Of a stretch of DNA of 32,000 nucleotides, positions 14,281 to 22,124 are shown piece by piece. The stretch is from the NCBI GenBank assembly GCA_027925325.1, contig AP027133.1, positions 30,001 to 62,000 on the forward strand, written 5' to 3'. This stretch comes from Candidatus Saccharimonadota bacterium. GTDB lineage: Bacteria > Bacillota_I > Bacilli_A > Mycoplasmatales > Hepatoplasmataceae. How positions within the stretch are numbered: the first letter of the stretch is position 1; each line of letters opens with the position of its first letter. The notes under the pieces were generated by a model, which saw nothing but the letters and a program-made list of their open reading frames with translations, was not told the origin of the DNA and did not search any database. The position numbers were made by a program, and so were the translations under genes.

Positions 14281-15195
14281 ATGAAAAATAGTAAACAAAA
14301 AATAACAAAAGCTGTGATTCCTGTTGCGGGATTAGGAACAAGATTTTTACCCTTTACAAAAACAATTCCAAAAGAAATGTTGCCCATTTTAAATATTCCA
14401 TCAATTGAATATATCATAAAAGATGCTGTTAATGCTGGAATTAAGGATATTATTTTTGTTACATCAGCTAGAAAAAAAGCATTAGCTGATTATAGTGATT
14501 CTTATCCTTGATTGGAAAATGAATTATTAAAAAAGGATAAAATTGCTGAATTAAATTTAATTAAACATATTCCATCAATTGCTAATTATATATTTGTAAG
14601 ACAATCGGTACAATTAGGATTAGGGGATGCGGTATTGAAAGCAAAATATGCAATTGGAAACGAACCATTTGCTTTGCTTTTAGGTGATGACATATTGATC
14701 AATGATTTTAAGAATATTAATAAAAATTCAATCTTAAAAGAATTGGTAGATTTATATCAAAAATACCAAAAAACAACTATTCTTGTACAACAAATTGAAG
14801 GAAAAGCGATTGAAAAATATGGAGTTGTTGGAGTTCAAAAAAATATTGATAAAAATAATTATCTTTTAAATTCTTTAGTAGAAAAACCAAATTTTAAAAA
14901 CGCCCCTTCTAATCTTGCGATTATAGGAAGATATATTTTAAAGCCTGAGATTTTTAATTATTTACAAAATGAAGAGATTGATCCGAAAACAGGTGAGATT
15001 CAATTAACAAATGCAATTAGTAAATATTTAAAAGATAATAATGATGTTTATGCGCATCTTTTTAAAGGCAGACGATATGATATGGGAAATATATTAGGTT
15101 TTTTAGAAGCACAAATTGATTTTGCTTTGAATAACAAAAAATATCGAAAAGTATTTAGTGAAATTTTAAAAAATAAGATTGAAGCTATTAAATAA
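14281..15195 (+). CDS. galU: UTP-glucose-1-phosphate uridylyltransferase
   Basis: ORFs 14281..14511 and 14512..15195 are in one frame joined by TGA. Motifs [27 protein letters not shown] and LGDD are present. Confidence 0.9.
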
Positions 15196-15197
15196 TT

Positions 15198-16067
15198 ATG
15201 AAACAAATTACTTTTGAAGAATTTCAAAAATTAAATAAAAAAGGATTTATTAAAATAAATCGCGAGATTAATAAATTGGGAATTAAATGATGAGCTCATT
15301 CTGGTACTTTATTAGGAGCAATTCGCGATAAAGGCTTTTTACCATGAGATGATGACATCGATATGGCGATGTCGATTGATGATTATTTAAAATATCGAAA
15401 TGATTTAATTAAGATTGCAGAGAAAAATAATTATAGATTTGCCGATCGACTAAAACATATCGGAATGAATGCAACAAGATTTATTTATAAAGAGAAATTT
15501 ATTATTTCATATGATGGAAAAAAATATGTTTCTGCTCCCTTTATCGATATAATGATTGCGATTCCAATAAAAAAAGAAAATAAATTTAAATTTAAGATTT
15601 GAGAATGACAAAATAAATTTTTCTTTTTATTCAATAGTTTGCCACCAATTCTTCCCAAAATTGATACAAGATATGGAAGAATAAAAAAAGTTCATTGATA
15701 TGAACAATTAGGAGCAGCTGTTGCGCAAATTTTTCTTTTTTGGATGATTCCGTTTTTTTATTTGCAAAATTATTGATTAAAACAAAAAGCAAAAAATAAA
15801 AATAATTATAAAAACCTTATTTTATATCATACTTACACTTCTAGAGTTTTTATATATCAAAAAGATAATTTAATTCAAAAAAAAATTTTTCAAGATAAAG
15901 AGATCATTTATATTTCAAAATTTTATAAGAAAGAATTAGAATCTGCTTTTGGTAAAAATTGAAATAAAAAACCACCAGCTGCAAAGCAAATTCCTCATCA
16001 TATTATTTATAATCAATATAATAAAAACAAAAAAGAAGCAAAAATTTATCCTTACATAATAAAATAA
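15198..16067 (+). CDS. licD: LicD-family phosphotransferase (CDP-alcohol dependent phosphocholine/phospho-alcohol transferase), copy 1
   Basis: ATG 15198; eight in-frame TGA codons are read as Trp; ends at TAA 16065-16067 (289 aa). The LicD signature [28 protein letters not shown] is present. Confidence 0.8.
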
Positions 16068-16078
16068 TTTTAATTATT

Positions 16079-16441
16079 TTATTTATATGATTCTTCTTGT
16101 TCTTTTTTAAGTTGCTTTTTAAAGATAACAGGAATTGAAATTATTGATAAAAATGATCCGGCTGAATTTCCTAAAGCTCCGATAATTACAATATAAATTG
16201 CTTTTGAAACATCTAAAGTGGTGCTATTTTCAGGAGTAGCACTATATATTGCAATTCAAGCTATCAAAGGAATTGTAATTGAAGAAATAAAAGTCGCATA
16301 TACACCATAAATCGCTGCGCTAACATATCTGTTTCGCTTTATCTTAAATATTTTAATATTAAAAGCTAGAGAAATGGTGTACTGTAAAATTAAGATAATT
16401 AAAAAAAATATAATTAAAAATCATCATTTATCTACTATCAT
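16079..16441 (-). CDS. Small integral membrane protein (about 120 aa, 3-4 TM), paralog of the upstream gene
   Basis: Minus-strand ATG at 16441, stop TAA (plus-strand tta 16079-16081). Absent from the ORF track because of in-frame TGA codons. Translation: MIVDKWWFLIIFFLIILILQYTISLAFNIKIFKIKRNRYVSAAIYGVYATFISSITIPLIAWIAIYS...AIYIVIIGALGNSAGSFLSIISIPVIFKKQLKKEQEESYK. Confidence 0.6.
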
Positions 16442-16796
16442 TTACTTCTTCCTTTTTTTGCTTCTTTTTTCTTCCTCGTTTTTCTTCATGACCTAGTTTT
16501 TTAGAAACATAGGGAACTAAAATTGCCGCAAAAAAATTACCAATTGCTGTTGCAAAAGCAGCAATTAGAATGATTCATCAAGGTGCCGTTTCTCCATCTG
16601 TTAATGCTACAACAACAATGGGCGTTGCGGCCATTGTTATTACAAATAAAAAAGAAGCAACTGCCCCCATTAAGGCAGCGACCAAAAATTGATCTTTTGA
16701 GATCATATAAATTCGATAATTAAAAAAGAATCCAACAATTAATTCTACAAAGGGATATACAAATAATATTATTAATGCTACTTCTCAATTTTCCAT
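16428..16796 (-). CDS. Small integral membrane protein (122 aa, 3-4 TM) with a basic C-terminal tail
   Basis: Minus-strand ATG at 16796, stop TAA (plus-strand tta 16428-16430). Translation: MENWEVALIILFVYPFVELIVGFFFNYRIYMISKDQFLVAALMGAVASFLFVITMAATPIVVVALTDGETAPWWIILIAAFATAIGNFFAAILVPYVSKKLGHEEKRGRKKKQKKEEVNDSR. It overlaps the start of the downstream paralog by 14 nt. Confidence 0.65.
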
Positions 16797-16901: not shown

Positions 16902-17621
16902 ATGAGCGAAATTAAAAGCAATCGTGTAATCTTATTAATTCATGGTTTTAAGCGTGGAAATGAGAATGATTTTGAATATTTAGAAGAATCTCTTCTTCAA
17001 TTTAATTTACCAGTAATTAATTTTGAATATTATGATAATTATGATAAAAAAACTTTAAGTTGAAAGTTTTTTTTTAAAAAAATTTCTGAGCAGATGGAAA
17101 TTTTAAAAGATAAGGAAATTATAATTATCGGTTACTCTATTGGGGCAATAATAGGAATTTATTTAGAAAACTATTATTCTAATGTGATTAAGGTCATTTC
17201 GATTTATCCGGCTTTTAAAATTCATTTTTTTGATTGAATAAAAAAATTGAAAGATTTTTATTTTAAGAGAAGAAGACTTAAGAAAAAAATCGGAAAAGAA
17301 CGTTTTAAAAAGCTTAATGAAATCGCAAAAAAAAATAAAGTTGTAGAAAAATATCCGGTAAAAATAACACGAAATATTAATATTTTTCGTTCGAAATTGC
17401 GTAAGAAAATAAAAAATATTAATATTAAGAAAACAGTTTTAATTTTATCTGAAATTGATGAAATTGTTCATTATAGAAAAACATATAAATATATAAGTAA
17501 TTTTAATGTTAGTGATAAAATTATATTTTTTAACTTAAGTCATTATTCAGCACTTAAAGATGGAAAAAATTTACGTAATTTTATCATTAGTGAAGTTAAA
17601 AAAATTAATCTAAATAGTTAA
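16902..17621 (+). CDS. Alpha/beta-fold hydrolase (esterase/lipase-like)
   Basis: ATG 16902; two in-frame TGA codons join it to track ORF 17247..17621 (239 aa). It has the LLIHGF oxyanion-type start, the nucleophile elbow GYSIG, and later acidic and His candidates (SEIDEIVHY, LSHYSAL). Confidence 0.65.
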
Positions 17622-17641: not shown

Positions 17642-18441
17642 ATGAGTAATTTTGAAAAAAAAGATCTGAAAAATGATATTAAAATAATTCATTATATCTG
17701 AATTCCTGATAAAAAAATATTCCAAAAAAACAATTGGAAATTATTAATAATACACTAAAAATTAATAATGATTTCTCAGTAAAAATATGAGATTTTAATG
17801 AAATAAAAAAATTAAATATTAAAAACAAGTATTTCAATAAATCTATTGCAAAAAAACAATGAGCTTTTGCTTCTGATTATTTGAGATTAAAAATTTTATA
17901 TGAATATGGAGGAATTTATTTAGACACTGATCTACATTCTTTAAAAAAAATAAGTAATTTTTTAGATAAACAAAATAATGTTGATCTTATTTTGGGTTTT
18001 GAATATAAATATCTTGTTTCAACTGGATTTATTTGAGCTAGAAAATCAAAAAACAAAATTATCAAAAAAATTTTAAATTATTATGATAATTTTGATAAAT
18101 ATAACGATCCAAAAAAAATTAAATTCATTGTTAATAATTATATTTGAACGTATGTTTTAGTTAAAGATCATAATTTACTTTTTAAAGATCAAAATCAAAT
18201 ATTAAAAGACAAAATTTTAATTGTTAATCATAATTATTTCTCATCTATTAATAAAGCAAAAGAAGAAAGTTTTTTTCTACACAAGCATTTATTATCTTGA
18301 AAGGAAAATCATAATATAAGAAAATTGATGATTTTTATTTTATCATATATTCAAGAACATAAAATTTTAAATCCATTTCTTAAAATTCAAATTGAACTTA
18401 AATTAAGGAAAATTAAAAAAATATATAAAAATTTGAAATAA
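17642..18441 (+). pseudogene. DXD-motif glycosyltransferase (Gly_transf_sug / GT32-like), interrupted by a 1-nt frameshift in poly(A) tracts (phase-OFF allele, pseudogene or sequencing error)
   Basis: The frame from ATG 17642 gives MSNFEKKDLKNDIKIIHYIWIPDKK, then stops at TAA 17756-17758. The remainder (KQLEIINNTLKINNDFSVKIWDF...WAFASDYLRLKILYEYGGIYLDTDL...) is open in the neighbouring frame from 17713 to TAA 18439-18441. The span is 800 nt, one short of a multiple of 3. Confidence 0.65.
17711..17730 (+). repeat. Two A7 homopolymer tracts (17711-17717 and 17724-17730) at the frameshift site
   Basis: The sequence reads gat-AAAAAAA-tattcc-AAAAAAA-caattgg. One added A in either run restores a single ORF. 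Confidence 0.8.
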
Positions 18442-18473: not shown

Positions 18474-19484
18474 ATGAAAACATTTGGCGTAGTTATACCT
18501 ATTTATAATACAAAAATAGAGTGAATTAAAAAATCTATTGATTCAGCAATAGAATCTTATTTTAATTTAAATAAGGATTTTGAAATTATCATTATTGATA
18601 ATGGTTCAAATGATAAAAAAATTTGAGAATTTTTAAATGAAAATTATAAAAATTATGATTTTTTAAAATTAAAAAAATTTGCAAAAAATGAAGGAAAACA
18701 ACAAGCAACAAAATATGGTTTTTATAAAATAGACGCAAAGTATTTTCAAGTTTTAGATGCAGACGATTGATTAGATTCAAACAAAATTAAAAACGTTGTT
18801 AATACTTTAAAAAAAATAGATGGCGATATATTTTTTTTAAACTATTACTATTACAATAATAAAAAGCAAACGATTCGAAAAGAACGCAAAATTTATAAAA
18901 AATCTTCTTTAGAATATATTGAATTGAAAGAAATTCCGAGAATGTTTTGACATTTTAATGCAAATACAATTTTTAATAAGGAATTTATGCTAAAAAATAA
19001 TTTTAAATTCCCTGATACAAAAATTTATTATGAAGATATTTATATTAATATGTGAAATTTATCAAAAGTGAAAAAACCATTTTTTGTTAATGAAGCATTT
19101 TATTATTATCGAGTAAATATTGGTGGAACAAATTTATCATCAACAAAAAAAATGTTTGAATATATCGATTATTTTGAAAAGATGTATCGAGAGATCATTA
19201 AATTAGATTTTTCAAATCCAATTTCAAAAAAAAATATGTTGAATCTTGCAAGTTTACAATATTTAACTCTTACTTATTTTTGAACAGCAAAGGAAAAATT
19301 TGAAGTTGCAAATAATAAAATAAATAATCTAAAAAAGGAAATTAAAAATAATAAAAATTTATATTATGCAAAAAGTTTAAAAAGACCAAGAATTACAATT
19401 CTTGGTGATTTAATTATTTGAAAAGGATATTCATTTTTCTTTGTAAAACCTTTTACAAAGATTGTTTTTAAATTTAGAAATTAA
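18474..19484 (+). CDS. Family 2 glycosyltransferase
   Basis: ATG 18474; in-frame TGA codons join it to track ORF 19068..19283 and on to TAA 19482-19484 (336 aa). GT2 pattern: FGVVIPIYNT...EIIIIDNGSND...KNEGKQQATKYGF...YFQVLDADDWL. Confidence 0.8.
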
Positions 19485-19486
19485 CT

Positions 19487-20158
19487 ATGATTAAAAAAGA
19501 TATTAAAAAATATAATGTATGTTTAACTTATGGAACTTTTGATATGTTTCATTTTGGTCATTTATCAATTCTTTTGAGATGTAAAGAGAAATGTAATAAA
19601 TTAATTGTTGGTGTTGCAACGGATGATTATAATAAAAATAAACAAAAAGAATCTATTCAATCACAACAACAGCGTTTTAATTTTATTAAAAATTTACATT
19701 TTGTTGATAAGGTTATTTATGAACATAACTTTAATATTCAATGAGCTAATGATTATAAAAAATATAGAGCAGAAGCAATTTTTATCGGAGATGATCATAA
19801 AGGAGAATTAGATTATTTAATTGAAGATGGAATAAATCTTATTTATCTTGATCGAACTAAAGGAATATCAACAAGTGATATTAAGAAAAAAATAAAGCAA
19901 AAAAATATTTTCTTTTTAATTCAAAACAAATTAGATCAAACAGAAGAATTATTTCAAAATATTAAAAAAATTAATCTTAATAAAGATAATTTTCTAGTTT
20001 TAGCGATTAATAAAAAAATTGAAACTAGTTTTCAGTTATATCAATTTTGAAATAGTAATAAAAAAATAGATTTTATTTTTCTTTTTAATAATACGCAAGA
20101 AGTAAATCAAATGAAAAAAAGAATTAATTTATTGAAAATTAATAATTTAATCAATTAA
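19487..20158 (+). CDS. tagD: TagD-like cytidylyltransferase (HxGH family) with an extra C-terminal region of about 85 aa and unknown function
   Basis: Motifs LTYGTFDMFHFGHLSIL (HxGH) and DRTKGISTSDI (RTxGISTS). The ORF extends through TGA 19742-19744 to TAA 20156-20158 (223 aa, compared with about 130-140 aa for a core TagD). Confidence 0.7.
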
Positions 20159-21008
20159 ATTTAAAAAATATCATATATATAATTCATAATTTAATTTTTA
20201 AATTTTTTACTTTAATTTCTTTTTTTATTTTTTTATAGTAATTTTTTCTTGATGAAAAAAATCTCTTATTAAGCATATATTTAACAAAAATTGGTTTATA
20301 ACTTTTATCTAAATTTTTATAATTTTTATTATAAAAATTAATTATGATAAGCAATGAATTTCAGTATTTTTCTTTTTGCTTACTATTTAATTTTTCTTTA
20401 TTAATTTTATCTAAAATGTTATTGTAAATTAAATAAGGAATATTAATATTTTTTCAACTTGCGTCTGTTCCAAGAGCCATTCCAATATATTGGAATTCAA
20501 AATGTTTGACTCCTTTTAATAAATTTTCTTTATTTTCAATTGCTTTTTGAGTTTTAAAAATTGTATTATAAGTTAATAATCCTAGTCTTTTTTTATTATA
20601 TTTTTGTTCTCCACTCTTATATTTTTTATAAAATGAATGTTGAACTAAATCTACATTTGTATTTGTTAATTCATAAATTAAATTTTTTAATCAATTAAAA
20701 ATTATTTTATCTTTTGCTTTAATTAATTTAAAGTATTTACTATCAATTTTTTGAAGGTATCTATACAAAAATTCAGCTTTTTTTAAATTTTCTTGATCTT
20801 TTAAAATTATTATTTTTTTATCAAAAGCTTTTATTATCTTATTTTTAAAATCAATATTTTTATTGCTATTTACATATATCATAACTTGAACTAAATTATC
20901 AAGAGAATTTTCTTCTAGATATTTTTGTAAAAAATTAATTCTAGTTATTTCTTCTAGATTAATTTTTTCATCAATTGTATAGATAAAACTTAAAACTTTA
21001 TTTTTCAC
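20139..21008 (-). CDS. GT2-like protein with a degenerate catalytic motif (hypothetical)
   Basis: GTG start at 21008 (track ORF 20691..21008). With TGA = Trp the same frame is open at both ends down to the stop at plus-strand tta 20139-20141 (289 codons). The N-terminal pattern LSFIYTID...VQVMIYVNSNK...ENLKKAEFLYRYLQKIDSKYFKLIKAKDKI mimics GT2 topology but has KAKD where DxDD is expected. Caveat: my manual frame tracking through the A/T runs at about 20640-20700 was ambiguous, so an internal frameshift cannot be excluded. Confidence 0.45.
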
Positions 21009-21125: not shown

Positions 21126-22124
21126 GTGAAAGAAATGGGATTTTTATTACAAAGAGTTAAAAGTGATTTTTTAAAAAATTATTTTACTGAGGATGAATAT
21201 TGTGAATATTTAAACAATATTGAAAATAATAAGTATATTGATAGAAAAATTTATCTGAAGATAAAAGAATTAAATATTTATTTAAAAACGAAAGATTTTG
21301 AATTATTTGATTTTATCACTGAAAATATAATTTCTTTTGATCAATGTAATAATAATATTTTAAAAATTTATGATGATTTTTTTAGTTATCATCAAAAAAT
21401 TCTTACAATTTTTTTTGACAATTTTATTCTTTTTGAAAAATTAATTAAAAATAAAATAATCAATTCAATTAATTATTTTAATATAAATTCTTTATATGAA
21501 TTAATAAGAAAAATTATTGATAATTCTCAAAATAAAATTTTTGTAAAAAGATTTAAATTTATTTTTTCTATTTTTTATAGTTATAATCGAGAAAAAGCAG
21601 AGAAAATAGTAAATTCAAAAAATAAAAATAAAATTAATGAAGATGAATTATTTATTAGTTTGTACAAAAATAGTGATAAAGCTACAAAAAGGTACTTTGA
21701 TTACAAATTAATAAATGAATTTTCTTTTTCGGATATAATTGACTTTTTTACGATTTTAAAAGATAAAAATTATAAAAATTATTTAAATATAAGAATTTTT
21801 TTAATTAATTTGTTGGGTGAAAAAAAATATAATAATTTCTATCAACAAGATGATCAAAATAATATTATTAATTGATTTTTGAGCAATTATAAAGCTATAA
21901 AAATTTTACGTAATAAAGTTATGCATAATAAAGTTTTATTTACAAATATGAAGGAATTAAATAAAGGAATTGATAGTCTAATTAAATTATCTAATCAAGA
22001 AAAAAATAATATTGGTGATTTAACTTATAAAAAATTTTTAAAAGAGACTTTTACTGTTTTGAAAAAAATTAATCAAAATAAAGCTTCTAATTTTTTTAAA
22101 AATGAATTAATTAAATTTCACTAA
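21126..22124 (+). CDS. Abi_2 (AbiD/AbiF-like) abortive-infection family protein
   Basis: Track ORFs 21126..21875 and 21879..22124 are in one frame joined by TGA = Trp (332 aa; ATG 21135 is an alternative start). The C-terminal signature IINWFLSNYKAIKILRNKVMHNKVLF matches the family's conserved sWl..l..lRN..aHh..l block. Upstream, the FSFSDIIDFFTILKD segment is also family-like. Confidence 0.6.

Follow-up and report, generated by a model that had tools for sequence, protein, structure and literature searches.

The glycosyltransferase gene at positions 17642–18441 of the window, by which we mean the whole 32-kb stretch of contig AP027133.1 analysed here, is split between two reading frames by a one-base change in a run of A residues. 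The most likely explanation, to which we assign a probability of roughly 0.45, is a genuine and recent slipped-strand contraction from A8 to A7 at positions 17711–17717, leaving a slippage null allele. On this reading A7 would be the true majority allele of the sampled population. The lesion itself is of a known kind: a conserved glycosyltransferase gene is thrown out of frame by one base in a homopolymer. The DNA originates from an uncultured mollicute of the woodlouse Porcellio scaber, represented by the metagenome-assembled genome (MAG) AP027133.1 of strain Ps-JP (PMC10928387). This symbiont of the woodlouse belongs to Hepatoplasma and is not a Mycoplasma, the group from which the preliminary description of the sequence drew its parallel.

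Open reading frames were derived with genetic code table 4 rather than table 11 because TGA encodes Trp in this organism; the GC content of the window is 23.4%. The first frame (frame A) extends from the ATG at 17642 to a TAA stop at 17756–17758 and encodes 38 residues, MSNFEKKDLKNDIKIIHYIWIPDKKIFQKNNWKLLIIH. Its N-terminus, MSNF...KIIHYIWIPDKK, aligns with the N-termini of the orthologues; residues 1–25 are authentic, while residues 26–38 represent out-of-frame read-through. The second frame (frame B) opens at 17713, directly after the TAA at 17710–17712, and contains YGGIYLDTDL within 242 codons that end at the TAA at 18439–18441. The translation therefore bears out the earlier observation that the IKIIHYIW N-terminus and the YGGIYLDTDL body, with its stop at 18441, lie in different frames. 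The two frames overlap at 17713–17755, the sole stretch where they can be joined, and both A7 runs reported at the frame change are indeed present (17711–17717 and 17724–17730, hereafter tract 1 and tract 2). The locations of these elements and of the neighbouring genes are listed in Table 1.

Table 1. Coordinates of the GT32 gene elements and of the surrounding genes within the window.
Feature	Position	Strand	Remarks
galU-like NTP transferase	14281–15195	+	Pfam, synteny
LicD	15198–16067	+	Pfam, synteny
Two overlapping small membrane-protein genes	16079–16441 and 16428–16796	− (both)	Pfam, synteny
Alpha/beta hydrolase	16902–17621	+	Pfam, synteny
GT32 5' fragment, frame A	17642–17758	+	38 codons + TAA; table-4 translation
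IIHYIW codons	17684–17701	+	GT-A strand β1, family-invariant His and Trp
Tract 1, A7, lesion site	17711–17717	+	Putative functional state A8: GAT AAA AAA AAT ATT CCA = D K K N I P
GT32 body, frame B	17713–18441	+	242 codons + stop
Weak hairpin UUCCAA(N8)UUGGAA	17720–17739	+	6 bp, encloses tract 2, starts 2 nt past tract 1; probably incidental
Tract 2, A7, bystander	17724–17730	+	True frame encodes (P)KK(Q)
DXD motif, intact	17923–17931	+	GAC ACT GAT = D-T-D
GT2	18474–19484	+	Pfam, synteny
Cytidylyltransferase with C-terminal extension	19487–20158	+	Pfam, synteny
Weak GT2-like gene	20139–21008	−	Pfam, synteny
329-aa protein without assignment	21135–22124	+	Pfam, synteny
Second LicD	22143–23000	+	Pfam, synteny
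Second cytidylyltransferase	23025–23450	+	Pfam, synteny

The deposited annotation of this locus is a 235-aa "glycosyl transferase" coding sequence on a 606,194-bp contig assigned to "Candidatus Hepatoplasma scabrum" (P0001), which, as the best database match, is 100% identical to the query and covers 88% of it. Given this identity over 235 residues, the deposited protein corresponds to the remnant only, with its start placed at the TTG at 17734. No Shine-Dalgarno-like sequence was seen upstream of this internal TTG. Being a truncated remnant, this CDS needs either a frameshift flag or a correction in the AP027133.1 record.

The site of the lesion was identified by comparison with full-length, intact orthologues (P0002–P0006) from five related Hepatoplasma lineages, which are 260–268 residues long and share 61–73% identity with the window protein. 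Following IIHY(I/V)W, these proteins continue with ISDKKNIP, ISDKKDIP, ISDKNEIP, IKNKNDIP or IKNKDDIP. Insertion of one A into tract 1 yields PDKKNIPKKQLEII, with IPDKKNIP at the junction, and matches SDKKNIPKNQMEII of P0002, whereas insertion into tract 2 produces IPDKKIFQ (IFQKKQ), which is seen in no orthologue. At the nucleotide level, the nearest relative (L001) carries GAC AAA AAA AAC ATT CCT, and thus an in-frame A8 exactly at the position of the A7 in the window. The same position is occupied by A6 in L006, by A5 in L007 and by AAAAATAAA(A/G)AT in L008 and L002–L005. As the conserved Ile-Pro is restored by the tract-1 repair only, and as L001 retains A8, the change is best described as the loss of one A from an A8 in tract 1, with tract 2 as a bystander. 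It had been proposed that one A added to either run would give a single ORF with a sensible junction. The resulting 266-aa ORF and the junction peptides quoted for it were reproduced for both runs, but the IFQ junction of tract 2 resembles no relative. The idea of a twin-tract switch is therefore not upheld, and the orthologue alignment rules out tract 2 both as the lesion site and as an equal partner.

The identification of the gene product as a glycosyltransferase was confirmed by profile comparison. The repaired protein matched PF04488 (Gly_transf_sug, with DXD) over residues 31–111 (49.7 bits, cut-off 23, E = 6e-13), and a weak match to PF12919 (TcdA_TcdB) was also obtained (25.7 against a cut-off of 23.6). 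The DXD aspartates, D95 and D97, are invariant both in the orthologue alignment and among 40 homologues, and the His and Trp of IIHYxW are likewise invariant in 40 of the 40 homologues. In YeGT and PaToxG, two toxin-type GT-A enzymes of solved structure, the sequence aligned with this motif is IHMIWIG. The AlphaFold model of the orthologue P0002, which is 72.7% identical to the window protein, has a pLDDT of 83 (above 90 in the core). In this model, strand β1 comprises residues 10–14 (pLDDT ∼94), and the frameshift site maps to the β1/α1 loop. The top Foldseek matches of the model were YeGT, PaToxG, SetA and Och1, with E values from 1e-8 to 3e-7. The gene product is thus a GT32-type glycosyltransferase with a GT-A fold, as predicted from the P0002 model. 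The profile match, the DXD motif and a modelled GT-A fold with the β1 His and Trp are all found, while a single uninterrupted frame is not. The gene is hence a member of GT32 by descent that is not encoded intact, since β1 and the rest of the domain lie in different frames.

The window enzyme shares the Gly_transf_sug domain, the (I/L)HxxW strand β1, the DXD motif and the GT-A fold with fungal Och1, YeGT, PaToxG, SetA and the glucosyltransferase domains of TcdA and TcdB, although its identity to these proteins is just 13–24%. Trp102 of TcdB, which we take to be the equivalent of the motif Trp, is required for UDP-glucose binding. In contrast to the toxins, the window GT32 is a short, single-domain bacterial enzyme of the housekeeping type.

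The gene order from the galU-like gene to the second cytidylyltransferase, GT32 included, is perfectly syntenic in six Hepatoplasma lineages. The preliminary description had placed the gene in a surface-glycan locus. This holds in a general sense, given the galU-like gene, the two LicD genes, the GT2, the weak GT2-like gene and the two cytidylyltransferases. We infer that the locus encodes a pathway for a phospho-substituted glycolipid or lipoglycan. This glycoconjugate pathway is not discussed in the paper that reported the genome (PMC10928387).

As the sequence stands, the gene is OFF, because the frameshift severs β1, with its invariant His and Trp, from the body of the enzyme, and the reading frames predict that the product of the A7 allele is inactive. 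If the contraction is real, it would have occurred within an ordinary Lys-Lys-Asn codon run in the β1/α1 loop of a conserved cytoplasmic GT-A enzyme (GT32-type, DXD). Ribosomes initiating at the ATG at 17642 would synthesise a 38-aa peptide and halt at 17756. The remaining 242 codons would lack β1 and the His and Trp of the nucleotide-sugar pocket, and the internal TTG would be their sole candidate start. A functional truncated enzyme initiated at this TTG was considered and rejected, as it would be without β1 and both invariant residues. With the enzyme OFF, the sugar would be absent in most cells; its presumed acceptor is a glycolipid or lipoglycan in the membrane, assembled through the flanking galU, GT2, LicD and cytidylyltransferase genes. 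The tract would then reflect default KKN coding in an AAA-rich genome and not a specialised switch. Reversion of such an allele may be as frequent as is known for mollicute A7/A8 runs, and a little full-length protein may arise from RNA-polymerase or ribosome slippage on either run.

The remainder of the gene was analysed for signs of decay. No second lesion was found in the gene, and the orthologue alignment shows that all invariant residues are retained. Identity to the outgroup is 60.6%, compared with 59.9–63.7% for the intact sister lineages, which indicates no branch acceleration. The dN/dS of the GT32 gene against its sisters is 0.29–0.33, ∼1.6-fold above that of sister-sister pairs, and intact neighbouring genes show a similar 1.45–1.7-fold increase; as dS is partly saturated at such AT content, these values were read only relative to the neighbouring genes. 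An old, decaying pseudogene would agree with the disrupted ORF alone and is ruled out by the relative-rate and dN/dS comparisons. The absence of decay in the rest of the gene thus points to a lesion that is recent, reversible or artefactual, and the complete lack of secondary decay fits an artefact and a reversible state equally well. Pseudogenes are also rare in the genus, with 4 among the 582 CDS of H. crinochetorum Av (PMC3942034).

This rarity is one of several observations consistent with an assembly or consensus artefact, in which the organism carries A8 and an intact 266-aa gene, and SPAdes either misresolved a low-coverage, extremely AT-rich homopolymer or followed a minority path. For the Ps-JP genome, SPAdes was run on Illumina reads only, at ∼20x and "without any polishing", and Table 2 of the source paper reports 30 "Illumina SVs" for this MAG, obtained by read alignment and FreeBayes (PMC10928387). 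The supplement of that paper holds no variant list (PMC10928387). The GC content of the GT32 gene is 16.9%, the third-lowest among the 23 genes examined. Illumina coverage typically falls at such low GC. An artefact would also account for a gene free of any other defect and for the A8 present at the same site in L001.

Several findings argue in the opposite direction. An Illumina consensus at 20x seldom miscalls A8, and the other 90 coding homopolymers of at least 7 nt in the 23 genes all remain in frame, including runs up to the more error-prone A10. Among the 23 genes with syntenic H. crinochetorum counterparts, only GT32 fails to align collinearly in a single frame; with one of the 23 broken, the assembly is evidently not riddled with indels. 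The authors of the genome also checked read mappings in IGV (PMC10928387). A homopolymer artefact of long-read sequencing was discarded outright, since only Illumina reads went into the MAG. Weighing the low coverage, the lack of polishing, the 30 variants and the rarity of pseudogenes, we regard an assembly error as doubtful, yet as the foremost competitor of the slippage null allele.

No second H. scabrum assembly was found by exact-protein look-ups (P0001 and HPr), a contig scan or DNA-pattern scans of metagenomes. The matches of the contig scan were to GT32 proteins of distant Clostridia only.

The stability of homopolymers within the genus was therefore assessed in a related species. Across four independent H. 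crinochetorum assemblies, which differ by 63–181 SNPs over 20.8 kb, 93 tracts of at least 7 nt have the same length, including two A9 and two A8 runs in the GT32 gene; the sole internal indel, an AC of 2 nt, falls in a spacer between genes. As tract lengths are fully stable in this comparison, a real fixed change must be rare, and its prior is not much above that of an assembly error.

The distribution of homopolymers in the window provides the background for judging the tract. A total of 153 runs of at least 7 nt (101 A-runs and 52 T-runs) are present in the 32 kb; the 23 genes examined contain 91, and the GT32 gene alone contains ten. Five tract pairs in the window start within 13 nt of each other. 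Essential genes contain runs of equal or greater length: asnS has ten runs, among them the A10 at 24620–24629, and an A9 occurs both in tsaD, at 25954–25962, and in tsaE. In the 23 genes, AAA accounts for ∼87% of Lys codons, and 76% of the Lys-Lys dipeptides are encoded as AAAAAA, so a KKN sequence gives A8 by default.

These data bear on the proposal that the run is a dedicated ON/OFF switch, in which slipped-strand mispairing in a mollicute poor in mismatch repair reversibly alternates A8 and A7 and the sampled population was mostly OFF. The precedent invoked for it is sound. The account of M. hominis vaa in PMC524362 describes a 5'-proximal poly(A) tract that is ON at A8 and OFF at A7 or A9, switching at 1e-3 to 1e-4, which is the same geometry as seen here. 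A phase-variable glycosyltransferase is also known from Mycoplasma, the β-1,6-glucan synthase of M. agalactiae (cited in PMC11658790). Within the window, the proposal is further favoured by the tract density of the GT32 gene, which at 12.5 per kb is the highest of the region, by the single defect in an otherwise conserved gene and by the setting in a glycoconjugate locus. However, the length of the tract does not exceed the background set by genes such as asnS, tsaD and tsaE, and the tract follows from default codon usage. Only L001 has A8 there; the remaining four lineages have A6, A5 or an interrupted run. The reading frame is intact, and the gene therefore ON, in all five other lineages and in every H. 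crinochetorum assembly found to carry it, and the 93 stable tracts show no length change among the four assemblies. Compared with contingency genes, the locus has a repeat that can toggle the frame, but neither the length and abundance of its tracts above background nor their conservation in position. The vaa and glycosyltransferase precedents thus make reversibility physically plausible, and nothing points to a maintained switch. The claim of a dedicated phase-variation switch is consequently unsupported, and we consider functional phase variation unlikely. The same low weight is given to the working form of such a switch, in which GT32 would be toggled in populations of the woodlouse midgut gland to vary phospho-glycolipid or lipoglycan surfaces against immunity or phages, with an OFF state made leaky by a low level of slippage rescue on the two neighbouring runs.

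A further possibility is recoding, whereby the full-length enzyme would be produced from the A7 template by transcriptional slippage (+A, on either run) or by −1 ribosomal frameshifting. A canonical X_XXY_YYZ slippery heptamer, A_AAA_AAC, occurs at 17725–17731, read in the phase of frame A and ahead of its stop. The 6-bp hairpin lies nearby, and the region 17705–17800 folds with −12.5 kcal/mol (z = −2.97). Leaky rescue of frameshifted mycoplasma gene fragments at a short (A)5T motif has also been reported in E. coli (bioRxiv 10.64898/2026.04.01.715767). Nevertheless, the hairpin overlaps the heptamer instead of lying 5–9 nt downstream, and just two of its pairs are G-C. It also lacks conservation: L001 and L006 keep arms of 4 bp, and L007, L008 and L004 have none. 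A shift at tract 2 would additionally replace the conserved N-I-P with I-F-Q, and a run of A7 is short for efficient transcriptional slippage. All orthologues are encoded in a single frame and require no frameshift, so this is not a conserved programmed event; the weakness, overlap and lack of conservation of the hairpin led us to reject both a conserved RNA structure and a signal for programmed frameshifting. Recoding would at best contribute a low-level leak on top of the OFF state, and as the source of a full-length enzyme it appears highly improbable.

The locus can be compared with several characterised systems. In M. hominis vaa (Zhang and Wise 1997, as summarised in PMC524362), a coding poly(A) tract near the 5' end is in frame at A8 and out of frame at A7, as it is here, and slipped-strand mispairing is presumed. 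That summary further describes both states and a switching frequency observed in clonal lineages for a surface adhesin (PMC524362). The window, by contrast, offers one state in one low-coverage MAG, a cytoplasmic enzyme, and a tract that is unconserved and not above background. The M. agalactiae β-(1→6)-glucan synthase (Gaurivaud 2016, cited in PMC11658790) is a phase-variable glycosyltransferase. It differs from the soluble GT32 in being a membrane GT2 synthase.

Phase-variable glycosyltransferases under homopolymer control occur more widely, and include Neisseria lgt, Haemophilus lic and lgtC, and genes of Campylobacter and Helicobacter. As in the window, a homopolymer frameshift affects a glycosyltransferase of a glycan locus and would alter the surface glycan; unlike the window, tract-length polymorphism is documented in these systems, and the tracts stand above the genomic background. 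A different parallel is provided by Buchnera and Blochmannia, for which Tamas et al. 2008 reportedly described frameshifts in poly(A) tracts with partial rescue by polymerase slippage. The resemblance consists of an AT-rich reduced genome, a poly(A) indel in a conserved gene and possibly a leaky rescue. The rescued tracts in these endosymbionts are said to be usually 9–10 A or longer, with the frameshift conserved between strains, whereas the run in the window is A7 and its frameshift is unique to one MAG.

Where a mollicute-like genome has ∼5 long homopolymers per kb, an A7/A8 frameshift on its own is no evidence of a contingency locus, and designating one calls for tract conservation, a comparison of tract length with the background and population data. 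If A7 is real, one step of the glycoconjugate pathway, whose genes are kept syntenic in six Hepatoplasma lineages, would be lost in H. scabrum Ps-JP or open to toggling. This strain could then serve as a natural knock-out for the role of the surface glycoconjugate in the isopod-symbiont relationship. Should the tract prove to be a true switch, no phase-variable trait would have been described in Hepatoplasmataceae before it, and phase variation would be seen in an arthropod symbiont of beneficial or commensal character and not in a vertebrate pathogen.

The ~9-kb glycoconjugate locus displayed an identical gene order in six Hepatoplasma lineages, comprising the window, its nearest relative (L001), the four H. 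crinochetorum assemblies (L002-L005) and L006, L007 and L008. The locus runs from a galU-like gene through LicD, two small membrane genes and an alpha/beta hydrolase to the split glycosyltransferase gene GT32, which is followed by GT2, a cytidylyltransferase, a weak GT2-like gene, a gene of unknown product, LicD and a further cytidylyltransferase. The pairing of LicD with CTP-transferases suggests that the locus product is a glycolipid with phosphocholine- or glycerol-phosphate-type decoration, in a wall-less bacterium. The terms 'glycosyltransferase', 'LicD' and 'teichoic' were absent from the paper describing the Ps-JP MAG (PMC10928387). The orthologous loci of the relatives encoded the GT32 query when read under table 4, and some of the window proteins carry TGA-encoded Trp (code 4).

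Positions in the window of the locus, genes and A-runs discussed
Feature	Window position	Strand	Description
Glycoconjugate locus	14281-23450		gene order compared across six Hepatoplasma lineages
Small hydrophobic-protein gene 1	16079-16441	-	~120 aa
Small hydrophobic-protein gene 2	16428-16796	-	~120 aa
First cytidylyltransferase	19487-20158	+	223 aa
Protein without Pfam match	21135-22124	+	329 aa
Second cytidylyltransferase	23025-23450		141 aa
A-run in tsaE	23791-23799		A9, in frame
A-run in asnS	24620-24629		A10, in frame
A-run in tsaD	25954-25962		A9, in frame
tmRNA	1683-2009		tag GNDDSAVDFALMQEQSIQNTNFALA
tRNA-Ser(gct)	6768-6858
tRNA-Gly(tcc)	8424-8498
tRNA-His(gtg)	23496-23572

The two small membrane genes are neighbours with a 14-nt overlap and were kept together in all of the Hepatoplasma loci. 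Their hydrophobic products matched no Pfam family above threshold, and together may constitute a small flippase or transporter of two subunits that moves the product of the locus. The 329-aa protein, also lacking a Pfam match, is encoded at the same position in all of the relatives, with 64 % identity to H. crinochetorum; at 14.8 % GC, its gene had the highest AT content among those of the region. The first cytidylyltransferase was the fastest-evolving of the genes compared (dN/dS up to 0.38) and bears a C-terminal extension of ~85 aa, which returned no domain match and is missing from the second copy.

Long A-runs in frame were also present in the essential genes asnS, tsaD and tsaE, with asnS holding five runs of at least 8 nt. 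Indispensable genes therefore tolerate long A-runs, and these tracts could serve as internal controls for read noise at homopolymers. Among the four H. crinochetorum assemblies (20.8 kb), the only internal length polymorphism was a 2-nt AC indel in the crr-HPr intergenic region, just 5' of the HPr start (L004 position ~3194, against L005 and L003); the alignment has an additional 2-nt gap at its very 5' end.

Several spurious table-4 'ORFs' overlapped the tmRNA and tRNA genes of the window.
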